NCBI GenBank assembly: GCA_043767805.1
Contig: JAYUGC010000014.1
Coordinates: 21,050-85,049 of the forward strand
Direction: 5' to 3'
Source of the DNA: Pseudomonadota bacterium
Lineage (GTDB): Bacteria > Bdellovibrionota > FAC87 > UBA2466
DNA: 64,000 nucleotides
Shown piece after piece: positions 1,334 through 62,490 of the stretch. Position 1 is the stretch's first letter, and each line of letters opens with the position of its first letter. The notes under the pieces were generated by a model that ran no database searches, was not told the origin of the DNA, and saw nothing but the letters and a program-made list of their open reading frames with translations. The translations under genes were made by a program, and so were the position numbers.

Positions 1334-2137
1334 ATGCTCCTCGAACTAAATGACTACCGCGTCTTCCTATCGGAAGAGCTGGCCCGCCGCACCAAGGCGC
1401 ACCCGCGGTACTCCCAGCGCGCCTTCGCCCGGGACTTGAGAATCAGCGCGGGGGAACTATCCGAAGTGCTTCAGAAAAAGCGTCGGCTCAGTGTGCGCTC
1501 GGCGTTGAAGGTCGCCCGCTACCTGTCTCTAAATACCACTGAAACGAAGCACCTTTTGTTCCTGGTTCAGCTGGACGGCGCCGCCGATTCCCGGGAAGCC
1601 CTCGAGCGCGGTCCCTGGCAATCCATGGCGCCGGACGCAAGCGCCGGGCTCGATCGGTTTCGCCTGGTCTCCGACTGGACCTGCTTTGCGATTTTGAACC
1701 TTTCCGAATGCGACAATTTTCGTCCTCTGGAAAGCTGGATGGCCAAGCGCCTCGGCATTTCCGCGTCCCAAACGAGAGTGGCCCTAGGCCGTCTCGAAAA
1801 AGTGGGCCTCGCGAAACGCGCCCAAGGACGCTGGCATTTTCCGAAAGGCGACATCGCCGCGCCTGAAGGCGTGCCTTCGGAATCCATCCGCGCTTATCAC
1901 GGACAAATCTTGGAGAGAGCGGCCCGTGCCTTGGAGCTGCAGCCTGTACACGAGAGAGAATTCGCGGGCGTCGGTTTCGCGGTGGATCCCAAACAGCTTC
2001 CCGCCATGAAGCGTGACGTAAGTCATTTTCTCGATGAGATGATCGCGAAATATGCGAAGGGCAAGAACCGCACGGAAGTATATCAATTGGAAATGGCTTT
2101 GTTTCGGCTGACCGAAGGAGACTCGAATGCGAACTAA
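1334..2137 (+). CDS. TIGR02147-family HTH-containing protein
   Basis: 267 aa. N-terminal pattern 'YR.FL.EEL.RR...P.YS.RAFARDL.IS...LS.VL..KR.LS' is typical of the TIGR02147 paralogous family found in Fibrobacter and Bdellovibrio-like genomes. Assignment from memory. Confidence 0.6.
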   Translation: MLLELNDYRVFLSEELARRTKAHPRYSQRAFARDLRISAGELSEVLQKKRRLSVRSALKVARYLSLNTTETKHLLFLVQLDGAADSREALERGPWQSMAPDASAGLDRFRLVSDWTCFAILNLSECDNFRPLESWMAKRLGISASQTRVALGRLEKVGLAKRAQGRWHFPKGDIAAPEGVPSESIRAYHGQILERAARALELQPVHEREFAGVGFAVDPKQLPAMKRDVSHFLDEMIAKYAKGKNRTEVYQLEMALFRLTEGDSNAN

Positions 2138-2141
2138 GGGA

Positions 2142-3461
2142 ATGTGGTTGTTAGCGTTGCTGATGTCCTGGAGTACGCTCGGGGCGACGAAGGTAGGTAA
2201 CGGCGATGACGGCGCGGATCTCGAAGCCGGCACGCCGGTCACCGAAGGGCCGATTCTCGAGGCGCGGGACGCGGCCGTGAAAAAGCTCGAGTCCTTGAAC
2301 GTACGCGGCATTCCAGGCCTCGGGCAACTCGCGCCCGAGGCGGCAAGCGCGAAGCTCGTCATGGCGAAAGAAGACGTTGAAGCGCGCGTGCAGGAAGACC
2401 AGGGTGCCTTTCACGTGAACTTTCAGGGCAAAGTCTACGCCCGCACTTTTGCGGAGACTCACGCGGCGACTCGCTTTTTCCCCGCCGCCTTGAAGCTCGA
2501 TAAAGAGCAGCTCACGGCGCTCCATATTCACGAAGCACTCCACCGCGCGTTGCCCGAGAGCGTGCGCGAAAACGAGAGCACCGTCGCGGCCATTACGCTT
2601 TCGATGACATCCCCCGAGGCAAATCACGACCGCGTTCGCCACACGGTTGCTTCCCTCGTGCCCGAAACGGTCATCGCCAAAGACGCGAAGCCCGTGGAAA
2701 TCGATCATTTCAAGACGCCCTCGCAAGTCGGCTATCGTTACACTTTGTTTCAGTCGGGAAACACGCCGTCGCAGTATCCGATTCAGTCGATGCACTCGGT
2801 GGTGAGCGAGCTTTATCCTTTTGGTGGCTTGAACGCGCCCTTCGGTATGGGCATCGAAGGCTCTCTGGTGAAAGACGCTAAGGGCAGTCACATGGGCCCG
2901 CTCGGGCTATCGGCGCGACTTAGAGCATGGACCGTGCGGGACTTCGCCGTGGGGTTCTGGGCCGAGGCGAGCCTTAATACGCTTTCCGCCGACGAGCTCA
3001 AAAATTCTCCTTTCGGACGCGATGTTTTCTCGGTGGGAATCTCGTTCAAAAAAGAGCTGACCCGCTTTTACGTCGAGAATCGGGTTGGTATCAGTTTCGC
3101 GGGCGCCGCCGCGCAAAACGTGGGGCTCGTGGCCTATAAGTATGACTACGGTCACGTATGGGATGTGAACCTACGCGCGGGAACGACCCTATGGAAAATC
3201 GACCTTGGAGCCTACGTCGATCTTAAATTGGCCGACCACTTGCGAGTGTCGGGTGGCGCCTTCAATTACGATAGCGGCCGGTACCGGATCCTTTCGGGAG
3301 GTCCGGAGATCGCTTTTCGCACCGAGGACGTGGTTTTCTCCGTCTTCGGCCGGTTTCTTCTCGATTCCACCAAGGGGGCGAGCTTCGATTACTTAGGCAA
3401 CCTCCTCGGCGCCGGCGTGGCTCAGGGTGGCGTAGGCGCGAGCCTGGGGGTCTTCTTCTAA
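2142..3461 (+). CDS. Secreted protein, probable outer-membrane beta-barrel (hypothetical)
   Basis: Signal-like N-terminus MWLLALLMSWSTLGA with RBS AAGGG 6 nt upstream. C-terminus ends ...GASLGVFF, the aromatic terminal residue typical of OM beta-barrels. Start at the internal ATG avoids overlap with the upstream gene. Confidence 0.5.
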   Translation: MWLLALLMSWSTLGATKVGNGDDGADLEAGTPVTEGPILEARDAAVKKLESLNVRGIPGLGQLAPEAASAKLVMAKEDVEARVQEDQGAFHVNFQGKVYARTFAETHAATRFFPAALKLDKEQLTALHIHEALHRALPESVRENESTVAAITLSMTSPEANHDRVRHTVASLVPETVIAKDAKPVEIDHFKTPSQVGYRYTLFQSGNTPSQYPIQSMHSVVSELYPFGGLNAPFGMGIEGSLVKDAKGSHMGPLGLSARLRAWTVRDFAVGFWAEASLNTLSADELKNSPFGRDVFSVGISFKKELTRFYVENRVGISFAGAAAQNVGLVAYKYDYGHVWDVNLRAGTTLWKIDLGAYVDLKLADHLRVSGGAFNYDSGRYRILSGGPEIAFRTEDVVFSVFGRFLLDSTKGASFDYLGNLLGAGVAQGGVGASLGVFF

Positions 3462-4108
3462 TGCGCGCTTTTCTCGCCTTGCCTCTGTTGGCACTTCTCT
3501 CCGGCTGCGGGTATCCGTACTTGGGAGGAACAACCGCTCCCTCCGTGTCCCAAACGTTTTCGCTCGACGCCGTGAAACAAATTTCTCCGGACATCGTCGG
3601 CGGAGACACGCCGTCCGCGTACGGACAAGCCGCTTATGACTTGGCGAGTGAAGCGCGGCTGCTTTTTCGCTACGAAAGTTTCAGTACGCACGTGAGCAAC
3701 GTGAATCTAGAAAATAACAAGCGGGTCCTCGTGCAGGTAACCGTGGAAAGCGACCCCTCCGAGGCGCGCACTCGCTTGAAGCTCTGTCCGCTCGTTTCGG
3801 ATTGGATGATGCTGGCGACTTGGACTCTCGCGCACCCGTTCGGACTCGGCGGGCAGTGGAAGAGCCCCGGAGCGGATTATGATGGCTCCGCCTGCGAGTC
3901 CGCTCAGCCCGTACCGGTCACTCCCGACCTGGATTACAAGCCCGAGCGGCTTTTCTTCGACATGACCCAGTGGTTTGTCGACTATGCGCGAGGACGCAAC
4001 GTGAATTACGGCTGGGTGCTCAAGGCGTCGGGCACCGTGCGTGTCGTGGGGGATACTTCGGCTAGTAACTCCCCGCGGGTCTACTTCGAAAAATACCTCA
4101 CTTATTAA
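3461..4108 (+). CDS. Lipoprotein, hypothetical
   Basis: N-terminus MRAFLALPLLALLSGCGYP contains a lipobox (LSGC). 215-aa ORF following the previous gene with TAATG overlap. Confidence 0.5.
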   Translation: MRAFLALPLLALLSGCGYPYLGGTTAPSVSQTFSLDAVKQISPDIVGGDTPSAYGQAAYDLASEARLLFRYESFSTHVSNVNLENNKRVLVQVTVESDPSEARTRLKLCPLVSDWMMLATWTLAHPFGLGGQWKSPGADYDGSACESAQPVPVTPDLDYKPERLFFDMTQWFVDYARGRNVNYGWVLKASGTVRVVGDTSASNSPRVYFEKYLTY

Positions 4109-4280
4109 GGGGTCTTAACCCGTCCGGGAAAGATCTGTTCCATTTCGGGCAATCGGGCTAGAGTTTCTCCTTTTCGCGAGGAGAAGCCAATGAGCCCTAA
4201 AACGTTTCGCTCCTCGAAATTTAATCACTGCCGTGGTGCGGCGGGCTCAAGCGAGAGCCCACTAGGAGCTAGTAAGCCAA

Positions 4281-5651
4281 GTGCAGTGGACGGAGTTTGA
4301 AACCGAACGCGAGCTGGGTCGAGGCGCCACCGCGCGGGTTTGGCTCGCGCGCCGGCTATCCGATGGCACGCCGCTCTGTCTCAAAGTCTTCCATCCCGGG
4401 CTCGGCGAAGCGGCGGAGCGCCGGATTTTGCGGGAAGCGGAATTCTCGGCAAGCCTCATTCATCCGAACATCGTGCGGGTGCTTGGCGCGGTGGCGGGCG
4501 GAGACACGGCGGTGCTCGCCTTGGAGCTTCTGGATGGAGGCAATCTAGAAGCCCACCAGGCGACTCTGCCCTACGTGCTTCCCGAAGTTTCCGTCGCCAT
4601 TGTTGCCGAAGTGTTGAAAGCGCTCGAGTTCGCGCATTCTCTCGGCGTCATTCATCGCGACCTCAAGCCCGGCAACGTGCTCTTGGATAAACTCGGGCGG
4701 GTCGCGGTAGCGGACTTTGGCCTTGCCCATGTGGTGGGTAACGAGATGACGGCGTCCATGGGACTTTTGGGATCAGTCGATTATCTTTCTCCCGAGCAGG
4801 TTTCCGGAGAAGCGGCTAGAGCCTCTTCCGATCTTTTTTCCGTCGCGGCCCTTCTCTATTTTCTCGTGACGGGAACCCGGCCGTTCACGCGTTTGAGCGC
4901 GGCGGCCACCATGGCGGCCATCCGTACCGAAGCCCCTGAACCGCCTCAAAAAAGAAATCCAAAGATCAGCCCCGAGCTTTCCCGGATTCTCTTGAAGGGT
5001 CTCGACAAAGATCCCGAGCGGCGTTTTAAAGATGCGGTCGAATTTAGGGGGGCGTTGCAGGGCTATCTCGGCGATTTGCGTTTGCTACCGTTCCCGCTGG
5101 CCGAGTGGCAGAAAGATCCGGCGGGCCGTACGATGGCGAGTCTCGAAGCCGCCGCGGAAGCGCTCATCCAGCGGGCCGAAGTCCAGCTGGTGCGCGCGGA
5201 GTGGGGCCCGTTTTTGGAGACCTTGAGCCATCTTTCGCTGAAGGCGCCCAGTACGCCGGCGCTCGCTCGGCTCACCGAGAGTTACCGCAAGGCGAAGCGG
5301 AGCCGCCGAAGGGCCGCGATCTTTTTCTGGACGGGATCGGTCGCGGGGCTGGCACTTCTCGTGTGGGGACTTTGGCCAGAGCGCAAGCTGCTCAAGCCCG
5401 TCCCTCCCGCGGCGGTGGCGGCGCCTGACGCGCTTCCCAAGGTCGCAAAGCCAAAGGTCGGACGCGTTCAGTTCAAAGTTCCGGATTCAGTGACGGTTTT
5501 CTGGGACGGTCACAAGATAGATCCGAAGCTAGGCCTTCTGGAAGAAAAACTAGGGGAGCACTGGCTTCTCATGGAAAGAGAAGGCTTTGCCCCCATTCGG
5601 AGCAAAGTACGGGTGAGGGCGGAAAAACCGACCGTCATCCAAGTCGATTGA
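4281..5651 (+). CDS. Serine/threonine protein kinase (Hanks-type) with C-terminal TM segment
   Basis: GTG start with AGGAG 13 nt upstream. Kinase motifs GRGATARVW (Gly-rich loop), HRDLKPGNVLL (catalytic loop), DFGLA, SPEQ. Hydrophobic stretch AAIFFWTGSVAGLALLVWGLW near the C-terminus. Confidence 0.85.
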   Translation: MQWTEFETERELGRGATARVWLARRLSDGTPLCLKVFHPGLGEAAERRILREAEFSASLIHPNIVRVLGAVAGGDTAVLALELLDGGNLEAHQATLPYVLPEVSVAIVAEVLKALEFAHSLGVIHRDLKPGNVLLDKLGRVAVADFGLAHVVGNEMTASMGLLGSVDYLSPEQVSGEAARASSDLFSVAALLYFLVTGTRPFTRLSAAATMAAIRTEAPEPPQKRNPKISPELSRILLKGLDKDPERRFKDAVEFRGALQGYLGDLRLLPFPLAEWQKDPAGRTMASLEAAAEALIQRAEVQLVRAEWGPFLETLSHLSLKAPSTPALARLTESYRKAKRSRRRAAIFFWTGSVAGLALLVWGLWPERKLLKPVPPAAVAAPDALPKVAKPKVGRVQFKVPDSVTVFWDGHKIDPKLGLLEEKLGEHWLLMEREGFAPIRSKVRVRAEKPTVIQVD

Positions 5652-5661
5652 AGGAAAGTGT

Positions 5662-7374
5662 ATGTGGCTTCATGTAAGCGGCGGCTCCGATGAGCGTTTA
5701 GATAAACCCGTGACGACCGTTGGGCTCGGGGTCGGTTGCGATCTCGATTTAGGCGCCGGGGAGCCCGCGGCGTGGTTCTCGCTTCGGCGGTCGGGCGAAA
5801 CTTTCGAAGTCCTTACCGGAGAGGAAGCGGTTCGGGTGAATGGAAAGCGCGTGTTCGGAAGCCGCCTCCTCGACGACGGCGATCGGCTCGAGTCGGGCAG
5901 CCGAAGTTTTATATTCTTGAAGCAGCTCGCGCGCGCGGTAAACGGCCGAGAGGTGCTGGCGAGTAAATGTTTGGAGCTACTTTCGTCTCTCGCCGCAAGT
6001 CTCGAGCGCGGTGCCGAGGTCGTTCTCGAAGATACGCTCGCGGCGCTCGTCGAGCTCGCCGGCGCTGAGTCGGGTCATTTAGTCGTCGAGAACGAGCGCA
6101 GCGGGGGCTGGGCCATTGCGGCCAGCGTCGGCGGGGAGGGAGCTGCCGGAAAAAAGGAGCTGCTTTCCAATACGGTTCTCAGAGAAGCGATCGCCTGCCG
6201 CAAGGCCGTGCACGTGGAGAGTCTCGTCGGCCATCCTTGGGCCGCCAATGCCTCGCTTCTCGGCGCGCGCATCTTTTCGCTCGCCTGCTTGCCGCTCTTC
6301 GTGTCGGGCCGGTGTTTCGGTTGCGTCTATCTCTACACGCGAACCCCGGGCCGCTCCATTCAGCGCGAGTGCCTGGACGATCTCGCGGTGCTTGCGACTC
6401 AAGCGGCTTTGTTGCTCGCGTCCGAGAGCCGCGCGGGACGTGCAAAAAGTAAAAGCCCCGCGGAACCTCGTTTGTCCTATTCGGAAGGCCCGATGCGGAT
6501 GCTCGAAGAGCGGCTTGCCAAGCTTGCCCCTTCCGAGCTCACTCTTCTCGTTCTGGGTGAGACCGGGACGGGCAAGGAGCTCGTGGCCTGCGCCATTCAT
6601 GGCAGAAGCCGCCGAGCGGCAGGACCTTTCGTGGCCGTCAACTGCGGCGCTTTGCCGCCGACCCTCATTGAATCGGTCCTGTTCGGTTACCAGAAAGGCG
6701 CTTTCACAGGTGCCGACCGCGACACGAAGGGCAAGTTCGCGGCAGCTGACGGAGGAACGCTTTTTCTAGACGAGATCGGGGACTTGCCGCTCGAGCTTCA
6801 GGTGAAGCTTTTGCGCGTGCTTCAAGAGCGGCAGATCGAGCCGCTCGGTGCGACGCGATCGGTTGCGGTGGACATACGCGTCGTCTCGGCGACTCATCGC
6901 GATTTGCAAGTGCTGGTGCGGGAAGGAAAGTTTCGCGAGGATCTCTTTTATCGATTGGGCGGAGCGACTCTCGAGCTTCCACCGCTACGGGAACGTCCGG
7001 GGGATATTTTGCCTCTCGCCCAAGCCTTTCTCGAGCGCACTCACTCGGGCCTCGCTTTGTCGGAAGCCGCTTGTGAAAGGCTTCTCGCTCACCGCTGGCC
7101 CGGAAACGTGCGCGAGCTAGAGCAAGTCGTTGCCCGGGCCGCGGCTCTTGCGTCCGGCACTCTCATTGCGGCTGACGACCTGGAGCTTCGCGATACCGAC
7201 GCTTCGGCTTCAGGGGAATTGCGAGAGGCAAGAGGCATCCACAGTTTTGAAATGGTGCAACGAGCGCTCGCTCGTCTCGGGGGGAGCCGCGCCAGAGCGG
7301 CCTCCGCCCTCGGCATCTCGGAACGAACGCTTTATCGCATCCTTGCTTCTGACGGGAGTGGCAGTGGCGTCTGA
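5662..7374 (+). CDS. Sigma-54-dependent transcriptional activator with N-terminal FHA and GAF domains
   Basis: Starts 11 nt after the kinase stop, with RBS AAGGAAAG. FHA-like N-terminus (TTVGLG..CDLDL..RRSGETFEV...NGKRV). AAA+ sigma-54 interaction motifs GETGTGKELVACAIHGRS, ESVLFGYQKGAFTGA, GGTLFLDEIGDL. C-terminal HTH. Confidence 0.85.
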   Translation: MWLHVSGGSDERLDKPVTTVGLGVGCDLDLGAGEPAAWFSLRRSGETFEVLTGEEAVRVNGKRVFGSRLLDDGDRLESGSRSFIFLKQLARAVNGREVLASKCLELLSSLAASLERGAEVVLEDTLAALVELAGAESGHLVVENERSGGWAIAASVGGEGAAGKKELLSNTVLREAIACRKAVHVESLVGHPWAANASLLGARIFSLACLPLFVSGRCFGCVYLYTRTPGRSIQRECLDDLAVLATQAALLLASESRAGRAKSKSPAEPRLSYSEGPMRMLEERLAKLAPSELTLLVLGETGTGKELVACAIHGRSRRAAGPFVAVNCGALPPTLIESVLFGYQKGAFTGADRDTKGKFAAADGGTLFLDEIGDLPLELQVKLLRVLQERQIEPLGATRSVAVDIRVVSATHRDLQVLVREGKFREDLFYRLGGATLELPPLRERPGDILPLAQAFLERTHSGLALSEAACERLLAHRWPGNVRELEQVVARAAALASGTLIAADDLELRDTDASASGELREARGIHSFEMVQRALARLGGSRARAASALGISERTLYRILASDGSGSGV

Positions 7375-7463
7375 CAAATTTGTCGGTCGCGGTGCTTCCC
7401 GCAAGGCTAATGCGCCCGGCACGGCTGTTGCACAAGGGGTCGGCAATCAAACGGAGGCTTTTC

Positions 7464-8366
7464 ATGCGATTGCTTAAAGCAAAACGCCGGCTTCCCTGGC
7501 CCGCCCTTATGGTTTTGTTCCTTTTGGGTGCGTTGGGAATGTCGGTCGCCGGCTACAGTGAAACTTATAATTTCTATTTCGAGAAAAAGAAGACCGAGGG
7601 CAAAGACGAGGAAGAGGCGGCCCCCGTCGTGCCACCACCCGCTCAAGTGCCGACTCCGATCGTCATCAACAATAACAATACGAACAACGTGGGCACTCCC
7701 GCCGCGGTGACGACGAATAACAACGCCGGCGTCGCCTCGGCGCCGGTCGGCGCTCCCGCGTCGCTGCCGACCCTGGTCTCGCCAGCGCCGGCCCCGGTGG
7801 GGGAAACGTCGATCGTGACGGCGGCTTTCTCTCGCCCGCCGGAGCGATCCCCTTGGCGAATGTCTCTAACCGGGATGGCATTTTTTCAGGAGTACCCCAA
7901 GTCCTATCTGTCCAATGGCGAAAAGAAGTCCTCTACGGCATTCGATCCGACGTGGGGTGGATTGCTCTCCGTGGGTTATAACTTCAGCCGATTCTTCGCC
8001 GTCAATCTCTATGGCGGTTTAAGAGTCGCTGATGTCGACACGAAAAGAGTCCACACCCATCTTGGCGCGGATCTCGAGTTCATGCCCTTCCGAATTCCGG
8101 TGTCCGAGCGCCACGATATCTTTGAGCTTGGTTTCCTCTTGGGAGGCAGTACCGCCTTGGCGGCTAAGAATAAGAATACGCTGACGACGTTCGACTCCGC
8201 TGGGAAATCGGTTCAGATTTCCTCGGGAGAGTCTGATAACTGGGGCAGGCTCCATGTGGGCGTGCGAGTGAACATCAACATCGTGCCGGAATTCGGCATC
8301 ACGACTTCGGCTCGCGGCAATTTAGGCTCCGTCCTCATTGAGGGCGGAATCGTCGCGCGGCTCTAA
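7464..8366 (+). CDS. Secreted Asn/Thr/Pro-rich protein with predicted C-terminal beta-barrel-like domain (hypothetical)
   Basis: ATG at 7464 with RBS ACGGAGG. Signal peptide LPWPALMVLFLLGALGMSVAGYS. Low-complexity VINNNNTNNVGTPAAVTTNNNAGV and PAPAPV tracts. C-terminal region with alternating hydrophobic residues. Confidence 0.5.
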   Translation: MRLLKAKRRLPWPALMVLFLLGALGMSVAGYSETYNFYFEKKKTEGKDEEEAAPVVPPPAQVPTPIVINNNNTNNVGTPAAVTTNNNAGVASAPVGAPASLPTLVSPAPAPVGETSIVTAAFSRPPERSPWRMSLTGMAFFQEYPKSYLSNGEKKSSTAFDPTWGGLLSVGYNFSRFFAVNLYGGLRVADVDTKRVHTHLGADLEFMPFRIPVSERHDIFELGFLLGGSTALAAKNKNTLTTFDSAGKSVQISSGESDNWGRLHVGVRVNINIVPEFGITTSARGNLGSVLIEGGIVARL

Positions 8367-8382
8367 AAAGGAAAGATTATCA

Positions 8383-9015
8383 ATGAAACACATTTCATTT
8401 TTGATGGCACTTTTGGCTCTTCTGATGCTCGGCGGATGCCGGTTCGATCCCGATGGACTTCTTGGTAACGATCCGGCGGTGAAAGAAACCGAAGTACTAA
8501 GTTCCTACGACCGCGAAGAGCTCTGCAAGCAAAAGAACGTTGGCTTCGTAGTGGCGAAGGAGGTCGAGAAGTGCGTCTCTCCTTCCGACCCGGCCTTGAT
8601 TGCGCGCTTCGATTCGTATGCACCAGATACGATCCGTATCGAGCTGGAAAAAATGTCGGACGGCACCTTTCCCAAGATTAACCGCCTTCAATACAAGAAA
8701 ACGATTCCCTGGGCCTCCTCGATCCCTTCGGAAAAGCCTCGGGACTTAACCTGCAAAATCGTCGAGTCACCCAGCGCGGTCCGGAACTATGATTGCCGGC
8801 TGGAAGGTCTAACCAAAAATTCGCATGGAAATGACTTCATTTTCGATTCGATGGAGCTCGGCCATGAGACCTGCGGCTCGACCGCGCTCTACAAGGCAAA
8901 TTTCCTGTTCGATTTTTGCGAAAGTCAGGTCGATATGTCCTATACGCGCGTCGAGGTCTTCTTCAAGAGGGAGAAGCTTCCCGAGATCGATCCCTACGAA
9001 GCGCCTAAGCCCTGA
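8383..9015 (+). CDS. Lipoprotein, hypothetical
   Basis: ATG at 8383 with RBS AAAGGAAAG. MKHISFLMALLALLMLGGCRF lipobox. Confidence 0.5.
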   Translation: MKHISFLMALLALLMLGGCRFDPDGLLGNDPAVKETEVLSSYDREELCKQKNVGFVVAKEVEKCVSPSDPALIARFDSYAPDTIRIELEKMSDGTFPKINRLQYKKTIPWASSIPSEKPRDLTCKIVESPSAVRNYDCRLEGLTKNSHGNDFIFDSMELGHETCGSTALYKANFLFDFCESQVDMSYTRVEVFFKREKLPEIDPYEAPKP

Positions 9016-9024
9016 AATTAAGCA

Positions 9025-9058
9025 GGGCCGGCCCTCGCGAGAGGACCGGCCCTTTAGA
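9025..9058. terminator. Bidirectional rho-independent terminator between convergent genes
   Basis: GGGCCGGCCCTC-GCGA-GAGGACCGGCCC hairpin (12-bp stem, one mismatch) followed by TTTAG. Confidence 0.5.
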
Positions 9059-9073
9059 TTGAGCTCGTTTGGC

Positions 9074-10177
9074 TTACTTAAGCTTCAGCTTGAGTTTCTT
9101 CTCGTTCGTGAGATCGCCCGAGTGGAACTTGCTGCCGGCGTAGCGAACCTTATACGTGATGATTAGGTTCTTCTTGGCCGGAACGCCAGTGACCAGGTCC
9201 ACGAAGCTGGTGACGCTGGAGTTTTTAGAGAGCGGCTTCTCGAAGCTGCCGAGATCGGTAACGGCATGGAACCAGCCGTTGTCGACGACGACCTTAACCG
9301 TCACGAACTTGTCTTCGACATTGGCGAGATCGGCGTCGAAGCCGGCGTCCGCGATGTTTACCGAGAGATTCGAGCCCGCGACCGAAGCCGTGAGGTTCAA
9401 GTCGTTGGTGGCGCGGACCTGCTTGCGGGTGCCCTGAAGCTCGATGACGGTGACGCCATTCTGCTCGGTTTTTCGCTGCGTGTACGCGTTGTAGTATGAG
9501 TTGACGTAGATCGTGTCGTCGACGCCGTCGAAAGAAATCGAGATGGATTCCTTTTCGTTGGCGAGAAGAGGAGCGTCCACGATGCGGACGTCGAACTGTC
9601 GGGTCTCGTTGTGGTGCAGCTGCTTCACCGGAACCGTGACCCAGCCCCAGACCGTCTTGTAGCCGCACTGGCCTTCGGTGAGGTAACCGAGGTTCGTCAT
9701 GTTCTCTTTCTTGAACGTGACCAAAACTTCGTAAGAGAAGCCGGTGTTGTAGCGATCGTCCGCGTCCTGGATGCGGCTCTTGAACTCGCTCCAAGAACGG
9801 GGCTTGTTCGAGAAGGTGCCGTCGTCGATGAGGCGCTTCGCCGTGGAGACTCCCACCCCTTTGATGGCGGCGGCGAGGCGAGAGGGCTTCTCGGCTTTCG
9901 GAACGTTGAAAAACTCTTTCCAATCCCCTTTCGTACCGTCGCCCTGTTGATCGCCTTCGCAATCCCAGACCTGCTCGGCCACGAATTTCTTTTCCGTGGT
10001 AATGCGGTAAATGGACGAAGTGAGGCCGAACGCCTGACGGGCTTCTCCCTTGAGATCCTTACCGGTGCGCTCCAAATGTTTCGTGACCGTGGTGCCTTCG
10101 AAGCTTGCGCCTAGCGCGAGACTGGAGACGAACGCCGTCACCGCCGTAAATCTGACTAACCAAGAAACGTTACGCAT
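9074..10177 (-). CDS. Secreted hypothetical protein
   Basis: 367-aa ORF. N-terminus MRNVSWLVRFTAVTAFVSSLALGAS is signal-like. RBS GGAGGA upstream on the minus strand. Confidence 0.5.
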   Translation of the reverse strand: MRNVSWLVRFTAVTAFVSSLALGASFEGTTVTKHLERTGKDLKGEARQAFGLTSSIYRITTEKKFVAEQVWDCEGDQQGDGTKGDWKEFFNVPKAEKPSRLAAAIKGVGVSTAKRLIDDGTFSNKPRSWSEFKSRIQDADDRYNTGFSYEVLVTFKKENMTNLGYLTEGQCGYKTVWGWVTVPVKQLHHNETRQFDVRIVDAPLLANEKESISISFDGVDDTIYVNSYYNAYTQRKTEQNGVTVIELQGTRKQVRATNDLNLTASVAGSNLSVNIADAGFDADLANVEDKFVTVKVVVDNGWFHAVTDLGSFEKPLSKNSSVTSFVDLVTGVPAKKNLIITYKVRYAGSKFHSGDLTNEKKLKLKLK

Positions 10178-28132: not shown

Positions 28133-28204
28133 TGGGGCGTAGAAAAGCGGTAATTCACTGGATTTTGATTCCAGCATTCCCAGGTTCGAATCCTGGCGCC
28201 CCAA
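28133..28204 (+). tRNA. tRNA-Gln (anticodon UUG)
   Basis: Cloverleaf: acceptor TGGGGCG/CGCCCCA, anticodon stem CTGGA/TCCAG with loop TTTTGAT, T-arm CCAGGTTCGAATCCTGG. Closely matches E. coli tRNA-Gln(UUG). Confidence 0.9.
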
Positions 28205-37596: not shown

Positions 37597-37612
37597 TGGC
37601 ATCGGGGTTGCA
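37597..37612 (+). promoter_or_regulatory. Candidate sigma-54 (-24/-12) promoter upstream of flgF
   Basis: TGGCAT-CGGGG-TTGCA vs consensus TGGCAC-N5-TTGCW: GG/GC spacing correct, one mismatch. Sits 65 nt upstream of the flgF ATG. Confidence 0.6.
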
Positions 37613-37676
37613 GGAGAGAAGAGACGCACCCCTTCGTCTTCTTATCGGTTTTTTTCCCCCAGTACTTGAGAGGCAA

Positions 37677-38522
37677 ATGGATAAAGGAATCTATACGGCG
37701 CTTTCGGGCGGCATCGCTCGGGGCCACGAAGTCGAGATCCTCGCCAACAACTTGGCGAACGTGAACACGCCTGGCTTCAAGCGCGATCAGGGGACGTTCA
37801 ACGAGTATCTCACCGAGCTTCGGCGTCCGGACTCGGTGGAAGGCTTGAAGCGGGAGATCGTCAACGCCGCTTCGCCGGACGGCCGTCCAGCGGGCGATAA
37901 AAGTTTCGTCGAGATGGACGGGGTCTATACGGATTATCGCCAAGGCGCGCTTCAAAAGACCAACCGCGATCTAGACGTCGCCATCGACGGCAAAGGTTTC
38001 TTCGAAGTGCTCACGCCGGCGGGCATTCGTTACTCACGCCAGGGAAATTTCACCTTGGACGGAGAGGGCCGCCTCGTAAACGGCGCGGGCCATCTCGTGC
38101 TCGCCCGCGATCCTCGTTTGACGCAAACCCTGCCAGCGGGAGCTCGCTTCGAGCCCACCGCGCCTGAATCGCGCGTCATTCAGATGGGCCGTATCGGCCG
38201 TCCTGAAATGACGCCCGACGGCCGCGTGATGCAGAACGGCGCGGAAGTTGCGAGTCTTTCTATCGTCGAGTTTCATGAGTCTCAGTGGCTCGAGAAGATG
38301 GGCAACGGCTTGTACCGCAACACGCACGAGAACAATTTAAAGCACGCGGCGCCGGAAAGCTCCATTCATCAAGGCTTCATCGAAGGCTCCAACGTAAACC
38401 CCGTCCAAGAAATGACCCGCCTCATCGAGGCCACTCGCGCCTATGAGTCCCAGCTGCAAACCATCAAATCCTACGGCGAGATCGATTCGCGTTCCGTGAA
38501 CGACATCGCCCGTCAACGTTAA
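37677..38522 (+). CDS. flgF: Flagellar basal-body rod protein FlgF
   Basis: MDKGIYTALSGGIARGHEVEILANNLANVNTPGFKRD is the flagellar rod N-terminal signature. 281 aa. C-terminal rod motif. Confidence 0.8.
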   Translation: MDKGIYTALSGGIARGHEVEILANNLANVNTPGFKRDQGTFNEYLTELRRPDSVEGLKREIVNAASPDGRPAGDKSFVEMDGVYTDYRQGALQKTNRDLDVAIDGKGFFEVLTPAGIRYSRQGNFTLDGEGRLVNGAGHLVLARDPRLTQTLPAGARFEPTAPESRVIQMGRIGRPEMTPDGRVMQNGAEVASLSIVEFHESQWLEKMGNGLYRNTHENNLKHAAPESSIHQGFIEGSNVNPVQEMTRLIEATRAYESQLQTIKSYGEIDSRSVNDIARQR

Positions 38523-38552
38523 CCCTCTGCTCAACTTTTTGGAGAAGAACCC

Positions 38553-39335
38553 ATGGTAAACGCTCTGCACTCCGCCGCTTCCGGCATGGAAGCTCAAATG
38601 GAGCAAATCGAAAACATCGCCAACAACCTGGCCAATGTGAACACCACGGGCTTCAAGCGCTCCCGCGCCGAGTTTCAGGATCTTTTGTACGAGACCTTGC
38701 AGGAGCCCGGAGCGAATACCTCCGCGCAGACTCAAGCGCCGGTCGGCATTCAGCGCGGCATGGGCGTTACCGTCTCGGGAACCCAGCGTAATTTCGAGCA
38801 GGGCTCTCCCCAGAGCACGAACCGCGATCTCGACGTCATGATCAAAGGCGACGGCTTCTTCGTGGTCCAGCTTCCCAATGGCGAACCGGGCTTCCGCCGG
38901 GACGGCTCCTTCTTTAAGAGCGCGAACGGCCGCATCGAGACCAACGACGGCTATCCGCTGCAGCCGGAAATCGTCGTGCCTCAGGGCGCGCGGAAAATCG
39001 AAATCTCGGAAGAGGGGGAAGTGCGCGCGGTCTTCAACGAGAACGAGAAAACCCAGATCGGGCAAATTCAGCTCGCTACTTTCGTCAATAACGGCGGCTT
39101 GAAAACCATGGGTAAGAACATTTACCTCGCGACCGAAGCGAGCGGCCCGGCCAATCTCGCCACTCCGGGTGACGGGCTCGCGGGCGGTCTTCTGCAGCAG
39201 CATTTGGAAGCGTCCAATGTCGACATCGTGCGCGAGATGACGAATATGATTTCCGCCCAGCGCGCCTTCGAGCTCAACTCGAAGGTGGTCCAGTCCGTCG
39301 ATCAAATTCTCCAACACACGGTGAGCATCCGATGA
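38553..39335 (+). CDS. flgG: Flagellar basal-body rod protein FlgG
   Basis: MVNALHSAASGMEAQMEQIENIANNLANVNTTGFKR. 260 aa, typical of FlgG. Confidence 0.85.
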   Translation: MVNALHSAASGMEAQMEQIENIANNLANVNTTGFKRSRAEFQDLLYETLQEPGANTSAQTQAPVGIQRGMGVTVSGTQRNFEQGSPQSTNRDLDVMIKGDGFFVVQLPNGEPGFRRDGSFFKSANGRIETNDGYPLQPEIVVPQGARKIEISEEGEVRAVFNENEKTQIGQIQLATFVNNGGLKTMGKNIYLATEASGPANLATPGDGLAGGLLQQHLEASNVDIVREMTNMISAQRAFELNSKVVQSVDQILQHTVSIR

Positions 39336-39955
39336 AAAAATGGCTGATTCTGCTTCTCGCCGCTAGCGCTTACGGCGCCAGCACGCCCGAAGCGGCTCTC
39401 GAAAAAGCGGTACGTAAATCATTGGGTCATCCCGCCACCGTCGAGGTTCATAAGGTGAGCCTCAATCTTCCGTGGCCGGGAAACGCCGAAGTGCGTCTCT
39501 TGAATCCCGATCACCCCTATGGCCTGGTGGCCTTCGAAGGGGGAGGGGTGAACGGAACCGCGGAAGTGCGGGCGGTGGCGAGCGTCGTCGTTGCTTCCAT
39601 GCCTATCTACGACGGTGATTCGTTCACGTCGAGCAACACCCGATTAGAAGAGCGCGAGCTTACGCGAGTAGCGGCCGGCGGGTACCACACTGATTTAAAG
39701 ACGCTCGCTCCCATGCGCGCGCGCGGGCGGGTGATGGCTGGCTCGGTCATCGGCATTCGACAGACTCAGGCCCCGGTGCTGGTACAGCCCGGCCAGCTGG
39801 TCGATCTCGTCATCGATCGCAACGGCATGAAGGTGAAAGCCCGGGTCGAAGCGCTGCAGAGAGGCCGCGACCAGGAGTGGATCCGCGTGCGCAATCCCAG
39901 CACCAAAAAAGTGCTCCAGGCGAAAGTGGTCGAAGAGGGCACGGTTACCCTCTAG
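39332..39955 (+). CDS. flgA: Flagellar basal-body P-ring formation chaperone FlgA
   Basis: Signal peptide. C-terminal SAF-like domain. Position between flgG and flgH. Confidence 0.65.
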   Translation: MKKWLILLLAASAYGASTPEAALEKAVRKSLGHPATVEVHKVSLNLPWPGNAEVRLLNPDHPYGLVAFEGGGVNGTAEVRAVASVVVASMPIYDGDSFTSSNTRLEERELTRVAAGGYHTDLKTLAPMRARGRVMAGSVIGIRQTQAPVLVQPGQLVDLVIDRNGMKVKARVEALQRGRDQEWIRVRNPSTKKVLQAKVVEEGTVTL

Positions 39956-39965
39956 AGGAGAAGTT

Positions 39966-40598
39966 ATGCGTTGGATTTCCTTTTTTCTGTTTAGCGTCCT
40001 GGCGGTAGCGGCTCTTGGGGGCTGTGCCACGGCGGACTTGCGTCCCATAGTCGATAACAAAAAGCCCAAGCCGGTCGTCGTTGCGCCCCGCAAGGAATGC
40101 CCGAAAGAACTGGGCTCCATTTGGTGTGAGAACTCCGACTGGAACGACATCTATTCGGAAGCGCCCAATCGTTTCCCGGGCGATACCATTTTGGTCAAGC
40201 TCACGCCTCGCTTTAGACAGCAGATGCTCCGCCGCCTGAAGCACGACTACCCCATCCGCGTGAAAACTAAGGTCGAGGGGGTCGACAAGCTGAAGCCCAA
40301 GGTCGTCGCCAAGATCGAAAATACCAGCAATGCTTTGGCGGACGACGATACCCAGCAGATTTACGTGACCATCACCGAAGTGCTCCCGCGCTATCTCTAC
40401 AAAGTGAAAGCGCAGGAGACCGTTCGTCTCGGATCCCGCGAGCCTATCATCACCCTTGAGGGCGAGATTCGTAACCGCGACATCCAGGGCGACGAAAGCG
40501 TCAGCTCGGACAACATCATGAATAGCGCCTTCGACGTGAAGCCGTACGGCGGCGATCGCCAGATCGCCTCGGAAGAAGCAGCTGAGGAAAACTCATGA
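39966..40598 (+). CDS. flgH: Flagellar L-ring lipoprotein FlgH
   Basis: Lipobox LGGCA. About 210 aa. Position before flgI. Confidence 0.7.
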   Translation: MRWISFFLFSVLAVAALGGCATADLRPIVDNKKPKPVVVAPRKECPKELGSIWCENSDWNDIYSEAPNRFPGDTILVKLTPRFRQQMLRRLKHDYPIRVKTKVEGVDKLKPKVVAKIENTSNALADDDTQQIYVTITEVLPRYLYKVKAQETVRLGSREPIITLEGEIRNRDIQGDESVSSDNIMNSAFDVKPYGGDRQIASEEAAEENS

Positions 40599-41638
40599 AA
40601 ACCCTTTTACTGGCCCTCTCTCTGTGCGCGGGTTCGGCTCACGCGACCCGCATCAAGGATCTCGCTCAGATCCGGGGCGCGCGCACCAATCAGCTTTCGG
40701 GCTACGGCTTGGTCGTCGGTCTCTCCAATACCGGCGATAAGAGCTTCGCGCTCACCGATAGCTCGCTGGCTCTCATCGTCAAAGGGCTTGGCGTCGAGCA
40801 AAAGCCCAACGGCAAATCGGAAAGCCGAAACGCCGCGGCGGTCATGGTCACGACGGTCCTCCCGGCGTTCAGCCGGGTAGGCTCCCAGCTTGACGTCACC
40901 GTATCGTCTATCGGCACCGCCACGTCTCTCGATGGCGGCACGCTCATGATGACGGCGTTAAAAGGCGCGGACGGCAAAATTTACTCCATGGCGCAAGGCA
41001 AGCTCGTGACCACGAAGCGCAATGAGCGCATTCGCGGCGGTCCCACGGGACAGAGCATGGTGACGGCGGGTATTCCCGGCGGCGGTCTCGTCGAAAAAGA
41101 AGTGCAGTTCGACATGACCCAGCAGCACGAGATCGAGTACCAGCTGCTCGCGGCGGATTTTACGACTTCCGCTCGGATCGCGCGCGCCATTAACGAGGAG
41201 CTCGGCGGCAAGTACGCCACCCCTCAAGACGCCGGCGCGGTGCACGTGATTTTTCCTTACTCCCACACGGGCACGCCGGTGGATCTCATCGCGCAGATCG
41301 AGAACATCGAAGTCGAAGCCGACAGACGCGCGAAGATCGTCATCAACCAGCGTACCGGCACCATCGTGCTCGGCTCGCAGGTGAAAATTTTGCCCGTCGC
41401 CATCGCTCACAACAACTTGTCCGTCGAAGTGCGCGAGCCCGCGTCCATTTCGGCGAGCGGCCTGGGTCTTGAAGCCCCCGCGAAGCCCCGTCGCGTGATG
41501 ATGATGGAAAGAGGCGCCACCATGGCGGACCTCGTTTCCGGATTAAACGAAATGGGAGCGTCCGCCGACGATCTTGTCGCACTGGTTCAATCGTTAAAAG
41601 TCTCTGGGGCGCTTGTGGCCGAGGTGGTGATACAATGA
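40595..41638 (+). CDS. flgI: Flagellar P-ring protein FlgI
   Basis: Signal peptide, then RIKDLAQIRGARTNQLSGYGLVVGLSNTGD, the conserved FlgI N-terminus. 347 aa. Confidence 0.85.
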   Translation: MKTLLLALSLCAGSAHATRIKDLAQIRGARTNQLSGYGLVVGLSNTGDKSFALTDSSLALIVKGLGVEQKPNGKSESRNAAAVMVTTVLPAFSRVGSQLDVTVSSIGTATSLDGGTLMMTALKGADGKIYSMAQGKLVTTKRNERIRGGPTGQSMVTAGIPGGGLVEKEVQFDMTQQHEIEYQLLAADFTTSARIARAINEELGGKYATPQDAGAVHVIFPYSHTGTPVDLIAQIENIEVEADRRAKIVINQRTGTIVLGSQVKILPVAIAHNNLSVEVREPASISASGLGLEAPAKPRRVMMMERGATMADLVSGLNEMGASADDLVALVQSLKVSGALVAEVVIQ

Positions 41639-55759: not shown

Positions 55760-57013
55760 ATGGAACACACCTTCTTCAGCCTGAATCGTTTCTTTCGGTT
55801 TTTAGGGTTCGTTTCGCTTTTCGAGCGAGTCGCGTACCGAGTCACGCTCAAGCTGTCGGGCTGGCTACAGCGCAACGCGCAACACCGGTGGCTTTTAATC
55901 GTGGCTTTGCGCGAGGGGCAGTCCACCATGGCTATTTCGCCTTTTATCGGCGAGGCCAACGGTATTAGTGGAGAATCAAAAGGCTCGTATAACTTCGAAT
56001 ACGAGAAGGCATTGAAAACGCCTTTGCAGCTGCAGAGACACACCGACACGTCGCACGAAAATGCGGCGCTCGTTTCTTTGCCGTCCTGGGCGAGAGAGAT
56101 TCAGCCGTTTTTACAGAATCAGTTGAGCGAGCACACGCGTCGGGCTTACGAGACCGACCTGCGTCAGTTCTTTTTGTTCCTGGAAGGCCGTCTCGACCCT
56201 CACAAGCTCGATACTTTGCGGCCCGAGCATCTCATTTTGTTCCGGAAATCCCTCGAGGAGGGGCGGGTGACCGGAAAACCCATGGCGAAGTCCTCCATCA
56301 ATCGAAAGCTCGCCGTGGTGAAGAGCTTTTTGAACTGGCTGCGCTTAAACCGGGTGATTCAGGAGAATCCGGGCCAGCTGGTCAAAGGCTATCCCCAGAC
56401 TCAAGAATCGGGCTTGAACGGGCTCTCCGATCTGGAGGCCCGTCGCATTCTGGATCTTCCCGATCGCCACTCCAAGTCAGGCGCTTTGCACCAAGCCATT
56501 CTCCACGTTCTACTCTATCTTGGGCTTCGCAAGGGCGAGCTCATTGGTTTGAAGGTGGGAGACTGGGATACGGAGCGTGGAACCGCGGTATTCAAGGTGC
56601 GGGGGAAGGGCCATCGCGTTCGCATCTTGCCGCTCACCGCCTCCGTGCGCGCGGCGCTCGATCATTATTTCTGGGTCTGTGGCCGTAGCCACAGCGAGAA
56701 AGAGGCGCCTCTCTTCATGCCGACGAAAAACCCGCGCTCAGGAAAGCTCGAGAAGCCGCTCAATCCGAACTCGATTACCTATCTCGTCGCTCGCTACGCG
56801 AAGAAGGCAGGCGTCTTGAAGAAGGTCTCCCCGCACTCTTGCCGCGCCACCTGCATCTCCAATGCGCTCGACAGGAAAGCCACTCAGCGAAGCGTGCAGC
56901 ATCTGGCGGGATGGTCCACGCCTCTCATGATTCAACGCTACGACAAGCGCCGCGAGGATTTGAAGAACTCCGCCGCCTTCCTCGTCGACTACCAAGAAAC
57001 CCACGCCTCCTAG
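55760..57013 (+). CDS. Tyrosine-type site-specific recombinase/integrase (phage-integrase family)
   Basis: Core-binding domain (TRRAYETDLRQFFLFL). Catalytic domain residues LGLRKGEL (Arg), HSCRATCISNA (H-x-x-R), LAGWSTPLMIQRYDK (catalytic Tyr). Confidence 0.8.
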   Translation: MEHTFFSLNRFFRFLGFVSLFERVAYRVTLKLSGWLQRNAQHRWLLIVALREGQSTMAISPFIGEANGISGESKGSYNFEYEKALKTPLQLQRHTDTSHENAALVSLPSWAREIQPFLQNQLSEHTRRAYETDLRQFFLFLEGRLDPHKLDTLRPEHLILFRKSLEEGRVTGKPMAKSSINRKLAVVKSFLNWLRLNRVIQENPGQLVKGYPQTQESGLNGLSDLEARRILDLPDRHSKSGALHQAILHVLLYLGLRKGELIGLKVGDWDTERGTAVFKVRGKGHRVRILPLTASVRAALDHYFWVCGRSHSEKEAPLFMPTKNPRSGKLEKPLNPNSITYLVARYAKKAGVLKKVSPHSCRATCISNALDRKATQRSVQHLAGWSTPLMIQRYDKRREDLKNSAAFLVDYQETHAS

Positions 57014-57247
57014 GACAGAGTCGTCAAGGCCAGGCTCCGGGCTGTAAAGGCGGCCAGCCCTGGCCCTGAGAAATCCGAGTCCCCAAAGGGACTTAGCGCC
57101 GTGGCTTCCCCCCAATCCCGAGCTGTTCAAGAGCTAAGCGAGAGTTACCTATATATTTCAATAGCTTATGCGTTTGAGCTGGCCGGGCCGTAAGAAGCTT
57201 GGGCATCCGAATAGGCTCTAGGCAGCTGACTTCAGACTGCGCGGTCG

Positions 57248-57263
57248 TGGCACGGAACTGGCT
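57248..57263 (+). promoter_or_regulatory. Candidate sigma-54 promoter upstream of the CXXCH/Calx-beta cluster
   Basis: TGGCACG-GAAC-TGGC: GG and GC correctly spaced. -12 box TGGC vs consensus TTGC. 40 nt upstream of the TTG start, with GGAG RBS in between. Confidence 0.4.
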
Positions 57264-57302
57264 TAACTAATTAGTGCCGTCCTTAGTTTTCGGAGTCTAC
57301 GT

Positions 57303-58523: not shown

Positions 58524-58526
58524 TCG

Positions 58527-62462: not shown

Positions 62463-62490
62463 ACGTGAGCCTTCCCGAAAGGGGTAACCC

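Follow-up and report, generated by a model that had tools for sequence, protein, structure and literature searches.

A candidate Hanks-kinase/sigma-54 activator module with a degenerate FHA-fold domain, its own operator and an outer-membrane protein operon in Bdellovibrionota

The window analysed in this study is a stretch of 64,000 nucleotides (nt) from contig JAYUGC010000014.1 of a Pseudomonadota bacterium (assembly GCA_043767805.1; GTDB lineage Bdellovibrionota, FAC87, UBA2466), and all positions are counted from its first letter. Its plus strand carries a gene for a receptor-type Hanks Ser/Thr kinase (4281-5651), a gene for a sigma-54 enhancer-binding protein (EBP; 5662-7374) and two genes for predicted envelope proteins, an outer-membrane protein (OMP; 7464-8366) and a lipoprotein (8383-9015). 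Two inverted repeats overlap the end of the EBP gene, and a sigma-54-type promoter element follows them. The original prediction for this DNA, made from the sequence alone, had paired the kinase with the EBP, proposed phosphothreonine (pThr)-dependent control through an FHA domain, and named two promoters elsewhere in the window as candidate targets. Our analysis retains the pairing and points to a different arrangement for the rest, in which the FHA-fold domain has lost its phosphate-binding residues and the candidate target lies directly behind the EBP gene.

The kinase gene encodes 456 aa and starts with GTG at 4281, with AGGAG at 4264-4268 preceding the start. In the Pfam search its product matched PF00069 (Pkinase) over residues 6-249 with 148.3 bits (cut-off 31.7), and the kinase motifs are complete: GRGATARV at residue 13, Lys34 in LCLKVF, HRDLKPGN at 125, DFG at 145 and SPE at 170. 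In the alignment of orthologous kinases, HRDxKxxN, the subdomain II Lys and SPE/APE are kept and an activation-loop Thr is conserved; locus L017 has DLG for DFG, and the open reading frame (ORF) of locus L019, as extracted, is without its N-terminus. The kinase domain is followed by a conserved helical juxtamembrane region assigned to the cytoplasm (HLSLKAPSTPALARL at residue 317), a basic stretch (KAKRSRRR) and a single predicted transmembrane segment, read from the sequence (AAIFFWTGSVAGLALLVWGLW; 5313-5375, plus strand, residues 345-365); most of the aligned kinases have a hydrophobic segment in the same place. After this helix come a Pro/Ala-rich linker and a C-terminal domain of about 65 aa (5460-5648, plus strand, residues 394-456), a PEGA-like, putatively extracytoplasmic sensor. 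PEGA (PF08308) was the top family in all 14 of the 14 orthologous tails, with every score under the 20.8-bit cut-off (best E 2e-4; window 0.046), and the tail profile gave a single, insignificant match against the PDB. This domain architecture is conserved in 16 loci. We read the protein as a receptor kinase that crosses the membrane once and has a small domain in the periplasm, its phosphotransfer activity being predicted from the motifs. A sigma-70 promoter scan over 3900-9300 found none, so no promoter was assigned to the kinase-EBP operon.

The EBP gene (plus strand, ATG start) encodes 570 aa. Pfam matches were obtained to GAF_2 at residues 118-250 (E 9.5e-8), Sigma54_activat (PF00158) at residues 277-437 (224 bits), AAA_lid_14, and the helix-turn-helix (HTH) family HTH_8 (PF02954) at residues 530-559 (29.7 bits, cut-off 22). 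The AAA+ motifs are intact, with Walker A GETGTGKE at 299, GAFTGA at 346 and Walker B LFLDEIGD at 367. The NCBIfam search returned only generic EBP and kinase equivalog matches, far under their cut-offs, and a scan of the 64 kb for rpoN or for a second GAFTGA-containing EBP found neither.

Only 10 nt separate the two genes (5652-5661, plus strand; kinase TGA 5649-5651, EBP ATG 5662), and an RBS-like (ribosome-binding-site-like) GAAGGAAA overlaps the kinase stop. The original prediction had placed the kinase directly before the EBP, as is the case, and had given the gap as 11 nt, which has to be corrected; with a gap of this size, translational coupling from kinase to EBP is plausible. For comparison, five loci were obtained by exact-protein look-up and 16 by a one-genome-per-species scan with alignment of the N-terminus and GAF domain, leaving after de-duplication 18 distinct loci, window included, 16 of them with upstream sequence. 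All are from Bdellovibrionota (Pseudobdellovibrionaceae, Bacteriovoracaceae and Oligoflexia). A same-strand ORF with the HRDxKxxN motif ends beside the EBP start in 16 of 16 loci (EBP identity 45-80%), with gaps of 12, -10, 2, 3 and 2 nt where start codons were called (range -10 to +12), and the outer flanking genes are unrelated between loci. Adjacency so complete amid changing neighbours would be difficult to account for if the two did not interact functionally; the earlier view of kinase and EBP as one functional unit is upheld by it, and we consider it probable that the kinase controls the EBP. In locus L005 (4383-6000) the kinase gene stops 331 nt short of the EBP and its C-terminal third is unalignable with the other kinases, which is probably a frameshift or an assembly error and not a true truncation.

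The N-terminal region of the EBP was where the original prediction had placed an FHA domain instead of a receiver domain, and it had named failure of a hidden Markov model (HMM) search there as what would refute the call. That search indeed failed: Pfam on residues 1-117 gave no family, FHA (PF00498) included, even at E<=10. Among the 37 closest homologues (42-82% identity), PF00498 was matched in 0/37 and PF16697 (Yop-YscD_cpl) in 0/37. The fold is nevertheless that of an FHA domain. Distant full-length homologues of equal length (35-39% identity), from Myxococcota and others, carry PF00498 and PF16697. In the following, clade A denotes the window protein with 34 close relatives (n=35) and clade B the FHA-positive relatives (n=40 for the Arg column discussed below). 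Alignment of the N-terminal profiles of the two clades with hhalign gave 98.4% probability (E 6e-15, 90 columns), and the clade A profile matched FHA domains in the PDB, namely KIF13B (6.5e-5), EssC (0.0028), YukB (0.005) and Dun1 (0.0076), followed by Ki67 and Rad53. The AlphaFold2 model of residues 1-92 has a predicted local distance difference test score (pLDDT) of 93.5 and a predicted template-modelling score (pTM) of 0.84. Among the Foldseek PDB matches listed for it, 50 of 50 were FHA domains, most with query template-modelling (TM) scores of 0.7-0.87, and these include GarA, Ki67, KIF1A, OdhI, FhaA, EmbR and Bdellovibrio DgcB. Residues 1-88 of the EBP (5662-5925, plus strand) are an FHA fold. 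The earlier module order of FHA, GAF, AAA+ and HTH in place of a receiver therefore stands, with its first element recognised by fold and not by Pfam. The family is small: a search with the profile of this domain at E<=1e-10 retrieved no more than 37 of 1.84 billion cluster representatives, roughly half of them EBP-sized proteins of ~550-620 aa with the domain at the N-terminus, and most others shorter and probably fragments.

Canonical FHA domains bind pThr through an Arg (GR, loop 3-4), a Ser with Arg/Lys (SR/SxxH, loop 4-5) and a His (PMC4157861). The GR-position Arg is found in 0/35 members of clade A, where T, S, W, I, G, A or L stands instead, vs 30/40 in clade B; the SxxH His is likewise absent from clade A (0/35), and most clade B relatives have a His in the aligned motif. 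At the Ser position, the window protein and the members that were inspected have neither Ser nor Arg. In the window protein Leu22 replaces the GR Arg, Pro35 stands at the Ser position and Trp38 replaces the His. Gly21, Asn60-Gly61, Asp74 and Arg75 are invariant in clade A (Asn60 in 35/35). By these residues the domain lacks the phosphate-binding apparatus, and we call it a pseudo-FHA domain. There is a precedent, as the FHA domains of EssC are likewise without pThr motifs (PMC4925161).

The phospho-Thr-dependent control through FHA that the original prediction had deduced from the architecture is thereby undermined. It would require a working FHA domain that binds the pThr of the autophosphorylated kinase, or of another substrate, and so activates sigma-54 transcription in the canonical manner. 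The high-confidence FHA fold, the retained Gly21 and Asn60-Gly61, the conserved activation-loop Thr of the kinases, the strict gene linkage, and the Pfam-detectable FHA domains with Arg and His in the distant relatives would all suit such an arrangement. Set against them are the replacement of the Arg and His by variable or hydrophobic residues in all 35 clade members, the altered SxxH position, the HMM result and the presence among the best PDB sequence relatives of EssC/YukB, of which the EssC FHA is itself without pThr residues (PMC4925161). Because Arg and His are lost clade-wide, and Ser in the window protein and the inspected members, canonical pThr reading by this domain appears unlikely. 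A working FHA domain is in our judgement quite improbable, and equally so the narrower proposition of a kinase control over the EBP by way of canonical pThr reading. Three canonical-FHA relatives from clade B are without an adjacent kinase: in one of them a Pkinase-PEGA gene lies 4 kb upstream, and the other two have no kinase gene within 5 kb. As far as these sequences tell, tight kinase linkage is a property of the clade with the lost pThr residues.

The GAF domain (6013-6411, plus strand, residues 118-250) carries an invariant His191 (GHPW) and an invariant Cys209 (ACLPL), 18 residues apart and kept throughout the clade alignment (window 6229-6300, residues 190-212), which recall the His/Cys/Asp metal centre of the PexR GAF domain (PMC12754779). 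A search of the GAF domain against PDB sequences gave no match at E<=1. With its invariant His191 and Cys209, the GAF domain could be the actual sensor, as it is in PexR and NorR, and this is the basis of the main rival explanation, in which kinase and EBP are co-transcribed and signal independently, the GAF domain receiving a ligand, metal or redox signal (compare NorR, NifA and PexR) and the pseudo-FHA domain serving oligomerisation or stability only. GAF domains are established negative regulators of EBP AAA+ domains (PexR, PMC12754779; NorR, PMC2941729), the pseudo-FHA domain has none of the phosphate-binding residues, and the only role assigned to the EssC pseudo-FHA is in protein stability (PMC4925161). 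Independent signalling would leave unexplained why a kinase gene is adjacent in all 16 loci, with gaps of 2-12 nt or overlaps, while other neighbours change, and why the kinases have a clade-specific cytoplasmic juxtamembrane domain, a plausible docking surface. We regard it as unlikely, and prefer control of the EBP by the kinase.

The 3' end of the EBP gene contains a candidate enhancer (upstream activating sequence, UAS) made of two 16-bp inverted repeats, 22 bp apart, with the consensus CTGACA-N4-TGKCAG. Dyad 1 (CTGACGGGAGTGGCAG; 7349-7364, unstranded) lies in the last EBP codons at offset -25 from the stop, and dyad 2 (CTGACAAATTTGTCGG; 7371-7386, unstranded) at offset -3 contains the stop codon itself (TGA 7372-7374, as C-TGA-CA). 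Dyads 2 and 1 stand 39 and 61 bp, respectively, upstream of a GG-N10-GC element on the plus strand (cGGCACggctgTTGCA; 7417-7432, with GG at 7418-19 and GC at 7430-31), which has the form of a sigma-54 -24/-12 promoter. With up to one mismatch, the dyad consensus occurs in the 64-kb window at 7349 and 7371 only, and in 221 kb of the 18 loci it gave 26 matches, 23 of which fall within -60..+120 of the EBP stop. A copy at offset exactly -3 is present in 13 distinct loci and one at -25 in 6, window included. In locus L012, where the OMP gene lies ~870 nt off, dyad and promoter stand next to the OMP gene and not the EBP gene. Fourteen distinct loci have a GG-N10-GC element in the equivalent position, with sequences such as TGGCACtcgcgTTGCA, TGGCATcgacgTTGCA, TGGCACtgtggTTGCA and TGGCACtgaggATGCT.

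The spacing between these elements is also patterned. From the centre of the promoter-proximal dyad to the GG we measured 39, 39, 47, 48, 49, 59 (four loci), 59.5, 58.5, 60 and 69-69.5 (three loci) bp, and this clustering near 39, 48, 59 and 69 bp looks like helical phasing of roughly 10 bp. Helical phasing argues for a protein-DNA architecture over an RNA hairpin. Dyads acting as RNA hairpins or terminators were rejected, their stems being 6 bp long and AT-containing, with no T-run, repeated in tandem 22 bp apart and phased with the promoter; no terminator-like hairpin was found between the EBP and OMP genes. The end of the EBP protein past the HTH domain (7315-7374, ILASDGSGSGV*) shows an S-D-x-x-G-S pattern that recurs loosely in distant orthologues, and it probably arises from codons that also form dyad 1 and one half of dyad 2, which puts them under a dual coding and operator constraint. 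It is highly likely, judging from the conserved position of these elements, that the EBP activates the adjacent candidate promoter at 7417-7432.

The window-wide search for sigma-54 sites used the consensus TGGCAC-N5-TTGCW. It gave 21 matches with up to two mismatches (21.6 expected) and 3 with up to one (1.35 expected), which is chance level, and such matches by themselves prove little. Two of the three are those given in the original prediction, and both exist as described, each one mismatch from the consensus; the third, at 7417, was absent from it and is the only one backed by conservation. The site at 37597 (TGGCATCGGGGTTGCA) lies in the gap between a divergent minus-strand GDSL-lipase gene and flgF, 66 nt before the flgF ATG at 37678, and flgF is the first gene of a flagellar rod/ring cluster, flgF-flgG-flgA-flgH-flgI (37597-41638). 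The site at 57248 (TGGCACGGAACTGGCT) lies 40 nt before a TTG start at 57303 and is followed by three protein genes, encoding a signal-peptide protein with a weak PSD2 match, a protein of 1311 aa carrying 5 Calx-beta repeats and one of 475 aa without a family.

The main regulon of the EBP could lie elsewhere, for instance at these two sites, with the downstream promoter incidental. Their near-consensus sequences at 66 and 40 nt before plus-strand genes, and the fact that this is the only GAFTGA-containing EBP of the window, would fit. The candidate operator, however, is found at 7349/7371 only: no dyad with up to one mismatch occurs near 37597 or 57248, and the nearest match with two mismatches, at 58085, is intragenic and ~840 nt downstream of 57248. 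Dedicated flagellar EBPs (FleQ/FlrC/FlbD/FlgR type) normally control sigma-54-dependent flagellar rod genes, and 37597 is plausibly a sigma-54 flagellar promoter served by another EBP. The Calx-beta cluster stands behind an integrase gene and is non-syntenic with the module in other loci. Together with the chance-level match count, these observations make a regulon centred elsewhere very improbable. Nothing in the sequences compared links 37597 or 57248, the candidate targets of the original prediction, to the EBP, and the promoter at 7417-7432 is the conserved candidate target.

The first gene behind that promoter (7464-8366, plus strand, 300 aa) begins with ATG 7464, preceded by a ribosome-binding site GGAGG at 7453-7457, after a gap of 89 nt from the EBP stop (7374). 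This start agrees with the public gene call, and the mechanical ORF list had given TTG 7380. Its product has a signal-like N-terminal hydrophobic segment, read from the sequence. The invariant TYNFYF motif (residues 34-39, nt 7563) stands at the N-terminus predicted for the mature protein and is followed by a disordered linker rich in Pro and Asn and, C-terminally, by a beta domain. A TYNFYF gene is found downstream of the EBP in 15 of the 18 distinct loci, in most cases directly after it, with up to five copies in tandem. In the AlphaFold2 model, residues 131-300 form 10 long strands (pLDDT mostly 70-90; overall 63.6), and Foldseek matched the model to the OmpA transmembrane domain (3.9e-6), Ail, OprG, NspA, OmpW and OmpX. 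The C-terminal residue is a non-aromatic Leu. On the model, the protein may be read as a small beta-barrel of the outer membrane that extends into the periplasm or at the surface.

The second candidate target gene (8383-9015, plus strand) encodes a predicted lipoprotein of 210 aa with the lipobox MKHISFLMALLALLMLGGC (LGGC). By BLASTP, homologues of it follow the OMP gene or genes in loci L001 and L005; in L002 and L004 the corresponding place is taken by lipobox proteins. Neither the TYNFYF protein nor the lipoprotein matched a Pfam or NCBIfam family, and the indexed search gave only 8 homologues, none of them named. A strong, GC-rich 13-bp hairpin at 9024-9053 (unstranded), between the lipoprotein gene and a convergent minus-strand gene, is likely the end of the operon. 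Locus L005 (8008-11799) has five tandem TYNFYF paralogues with 33-44% mutual identity under a single dyad and sigma-54 promoter, and a lipoprotein gene after them; locus L017 has three copies.

Considering all the above results, we propose a plausible model for this locus. The membrane Hanks kinase would sense an envelope or extracellular cue through its periplasmic PEGA-like domain. The AAA+ ATPase of the EBP would be restrained by its N-terminal pseudo-FHA and GAF region, by analogy with GAF-regulated EBPs, and the kinase may dock on this region, phosphorylate it, or both, probably not by canonical pThr recognition. The active EBP would then bind the tandem dyads at the end of its own gene (7349-7386), elements that are themselves observed and conserved, and activate the promoter at 7417-7432, leading to expression of the TYNFYF OMP and the lipoprotein. 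We incline to the view that this is a self-contained one-kinase/one-activator/one-promoter module of Bdellovibrionota, in which the kinase acts on the EBP and the EBP on the OMP-lipoprotein promoter. As to how kinase and EBP are coupled, the pseudo-FHA domain may have been repurposed for phosphorylation-independent docking, with the kinase phosphorylating the pseudo-FHA/GAF region directly; this is offered tentatively, and we hold it to be less likely than not. If it is true, the domain would tie a single receptor kinase firmly to a single sigma-54 activator, and the module would be a Bdellovibrionota Ser/Thr-kinase equivalent of NtrB/NtrC, with its own operator and a single OMP operon as output.

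Several observations weigh against the proposed module. The invariant His and Cys of the GAF domain could make it the real sensor, with the kinase accessory, and the invariant Arg75 could belong to an alternative phosphate pocket in the pseudo-FHA domain. The PEGA assignment of the kinase tail is sub-threshold in Pfam. Several loci (L001, L003 and L008) have a degenerate dyad 1, and the dyads, with their centres some 39-91 bp before the GG, are nearer to the promoter than many characterised enhancers. The overall pLDDT of the OMP model is modest, and its family is without a Pfam or NCBIfam match. The sigma-54 gene lies outside the window and its presence in the genome is assumed, and all loci come from metagenome-assembled genomes or metagenomes.

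FHA-containing sigma-54 activators have been catalogued since 2005 and are mostly myxobacterial; the FHA-domain EBPs of Myxococcus xanthus were reportedly described in that year by Jelsbak, Givskov and Kaiser in PNAS. We know of no kinase to FHA-EBP to promoter chain that has been laid out end to end. Work on the Myxococcus FHA-EBPs is cited in PMC11980068 and PMC4320627. The window EBP resembles these proteins in having an FHA-fold N-terminus in place of the receiver of an NtrC-like activator and a presumed link to a Hanks kinase, and it shares full-length homology (35-39% identity) with many Myxococcota FHA(PF00498)-GAF-AAA+-HTH proteins. In contrast, the clade of the window protein is without Arg and His in 35/35 members and its FHA domain goes undetected by Pfam; it also has the kinase in the same operon at every locus, and a candidate target promoter and operator directly downstream.

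With NtrB/NtrC the module shares a kinase gene just upstream of the EBP, tandem dyads before a -24/-12 promoter, a GAFTGA-containing AAA+ domain and a Fis-type HTH. It differs in having a Hanks Ser/Thr kinase instead of a histidine kinase, and a pseudo-FHA and GAF region with no receiver and no phospho-acceptor Asp; the candidate enhancer lies inside the 3' end of the EBP gene, unusually near the promoter. Like NorR, NifA, FhlA and PexR, the EBP has, before the AAA+ domain, a GAF domain, which in those proteins acts as a repressor within the molecule until a signal lifts the repression (PMC12754779; PMC2941729). The window EBP differs from them in the additional FHA-fold domain before the GAF domain and in the dedicated kinase encoded upstream.

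A further parallel is provided by EssC/YukB of type VIIb secretion (PDB 5fwh, 9qks), whose FHA folds are also without pThr motifs (PMC4925161); in the PDB search with the clade profile they rank with the best sequence matches (E 0.003-0.005). In the type VIIb system these FHA domains work beside a kinase-fold partner, the pseudokinase EssB/YukC (title of PMC9600267). The window kinase, unlike that partner, is catalytically complete by motif, and the window EBP is a transcription activator with one FHA domain instead of a secretion ATPase with two.

The mycobacterial pairs PknH-EmbR and PknB/PknG-GarA (OdhI) likewise pair a Hanks kinase with an FHA-bearing regulator under its control, and the FHA domains of EmbR, GarA and OdhI are among the top structural matches listed (TM 0.75-0.87). 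embR and pknH are neighbouring genes. A difference is that these FHA domains bind pThr in the canonical way. In addition, EmbR acts as a SARP/OmpR-type sigma-70 regulator and GarA as an inhibitor of metabolic enzymes, and none of EmbR, GarA and OdhI is a sigma-54 AAA+ activator.

The FHA-(GAF)-AAA+-HTH architecture is already known from the Myxococcus FHA-EBPs. What is new, on the sequence comparisons made here, is a Bdellovibrionota clade with a degenerate FHA domain and yet an invariably co-operonic kinase, a defined candidate operator partly encoded in the EBP stop codon, and a dedicated, uncharacterised OMP family as candidate output. The locus offers a compact and fully specified candidate chain of sensor kinase, activator, operator of 2 x 16 bp, -24/-12 promoter and two envelope genes, which is conserved in more than a dozen genomes, and it makes Hanks-kinase control of a sigma-54 AAA+ activator directly testable. 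That phosphate-binding residues are lost in just the clade with the tightest kinase linkage is a caution against equating an FHA fold with a pThr reader, and the combination hints at a different coupling mechanism. The TYNFYF OMP family, of which one genome has five copies, may be relevant to how predatory or Bdellovibrio-like bacteria remodel their envelope.

Beyond the module, a few features of the window and of related loci deserve mention. Upstream of the kinase lie genes for DUF354 (273-1286) and DUF4423 (1334-2137) proteins and two ORFs without a family (2127-3461 and 3461-4108). They were rejected as members of the conserved module because they are syntenic only with the closest relative, L001, in which an adh_short gene is inserted between them and the kinase. 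The canonical FHA-GAF EBP loci L023-L025 have other conserved neighbours, a protein of ~180 aa and a CarboxypepD_reg-like protein of ~580 aa, and in L024 a TGGCACgccgtATGCT element lies ~35 nt before the gene for the ~180-aa protein; an EBP gene directly followed by its own sigma-54 target may be general for the wider family. The region 55760-63918 consists of a tyrosine integrase gene (55760-57013), an AT-rich gap, the site at 57248 and the three genes described above, and may be an integrated island, with no tRNA gene adjoining it. The sole tRNA gene of the window, tRNA-Gln(TTG), is located at 28133-28204.

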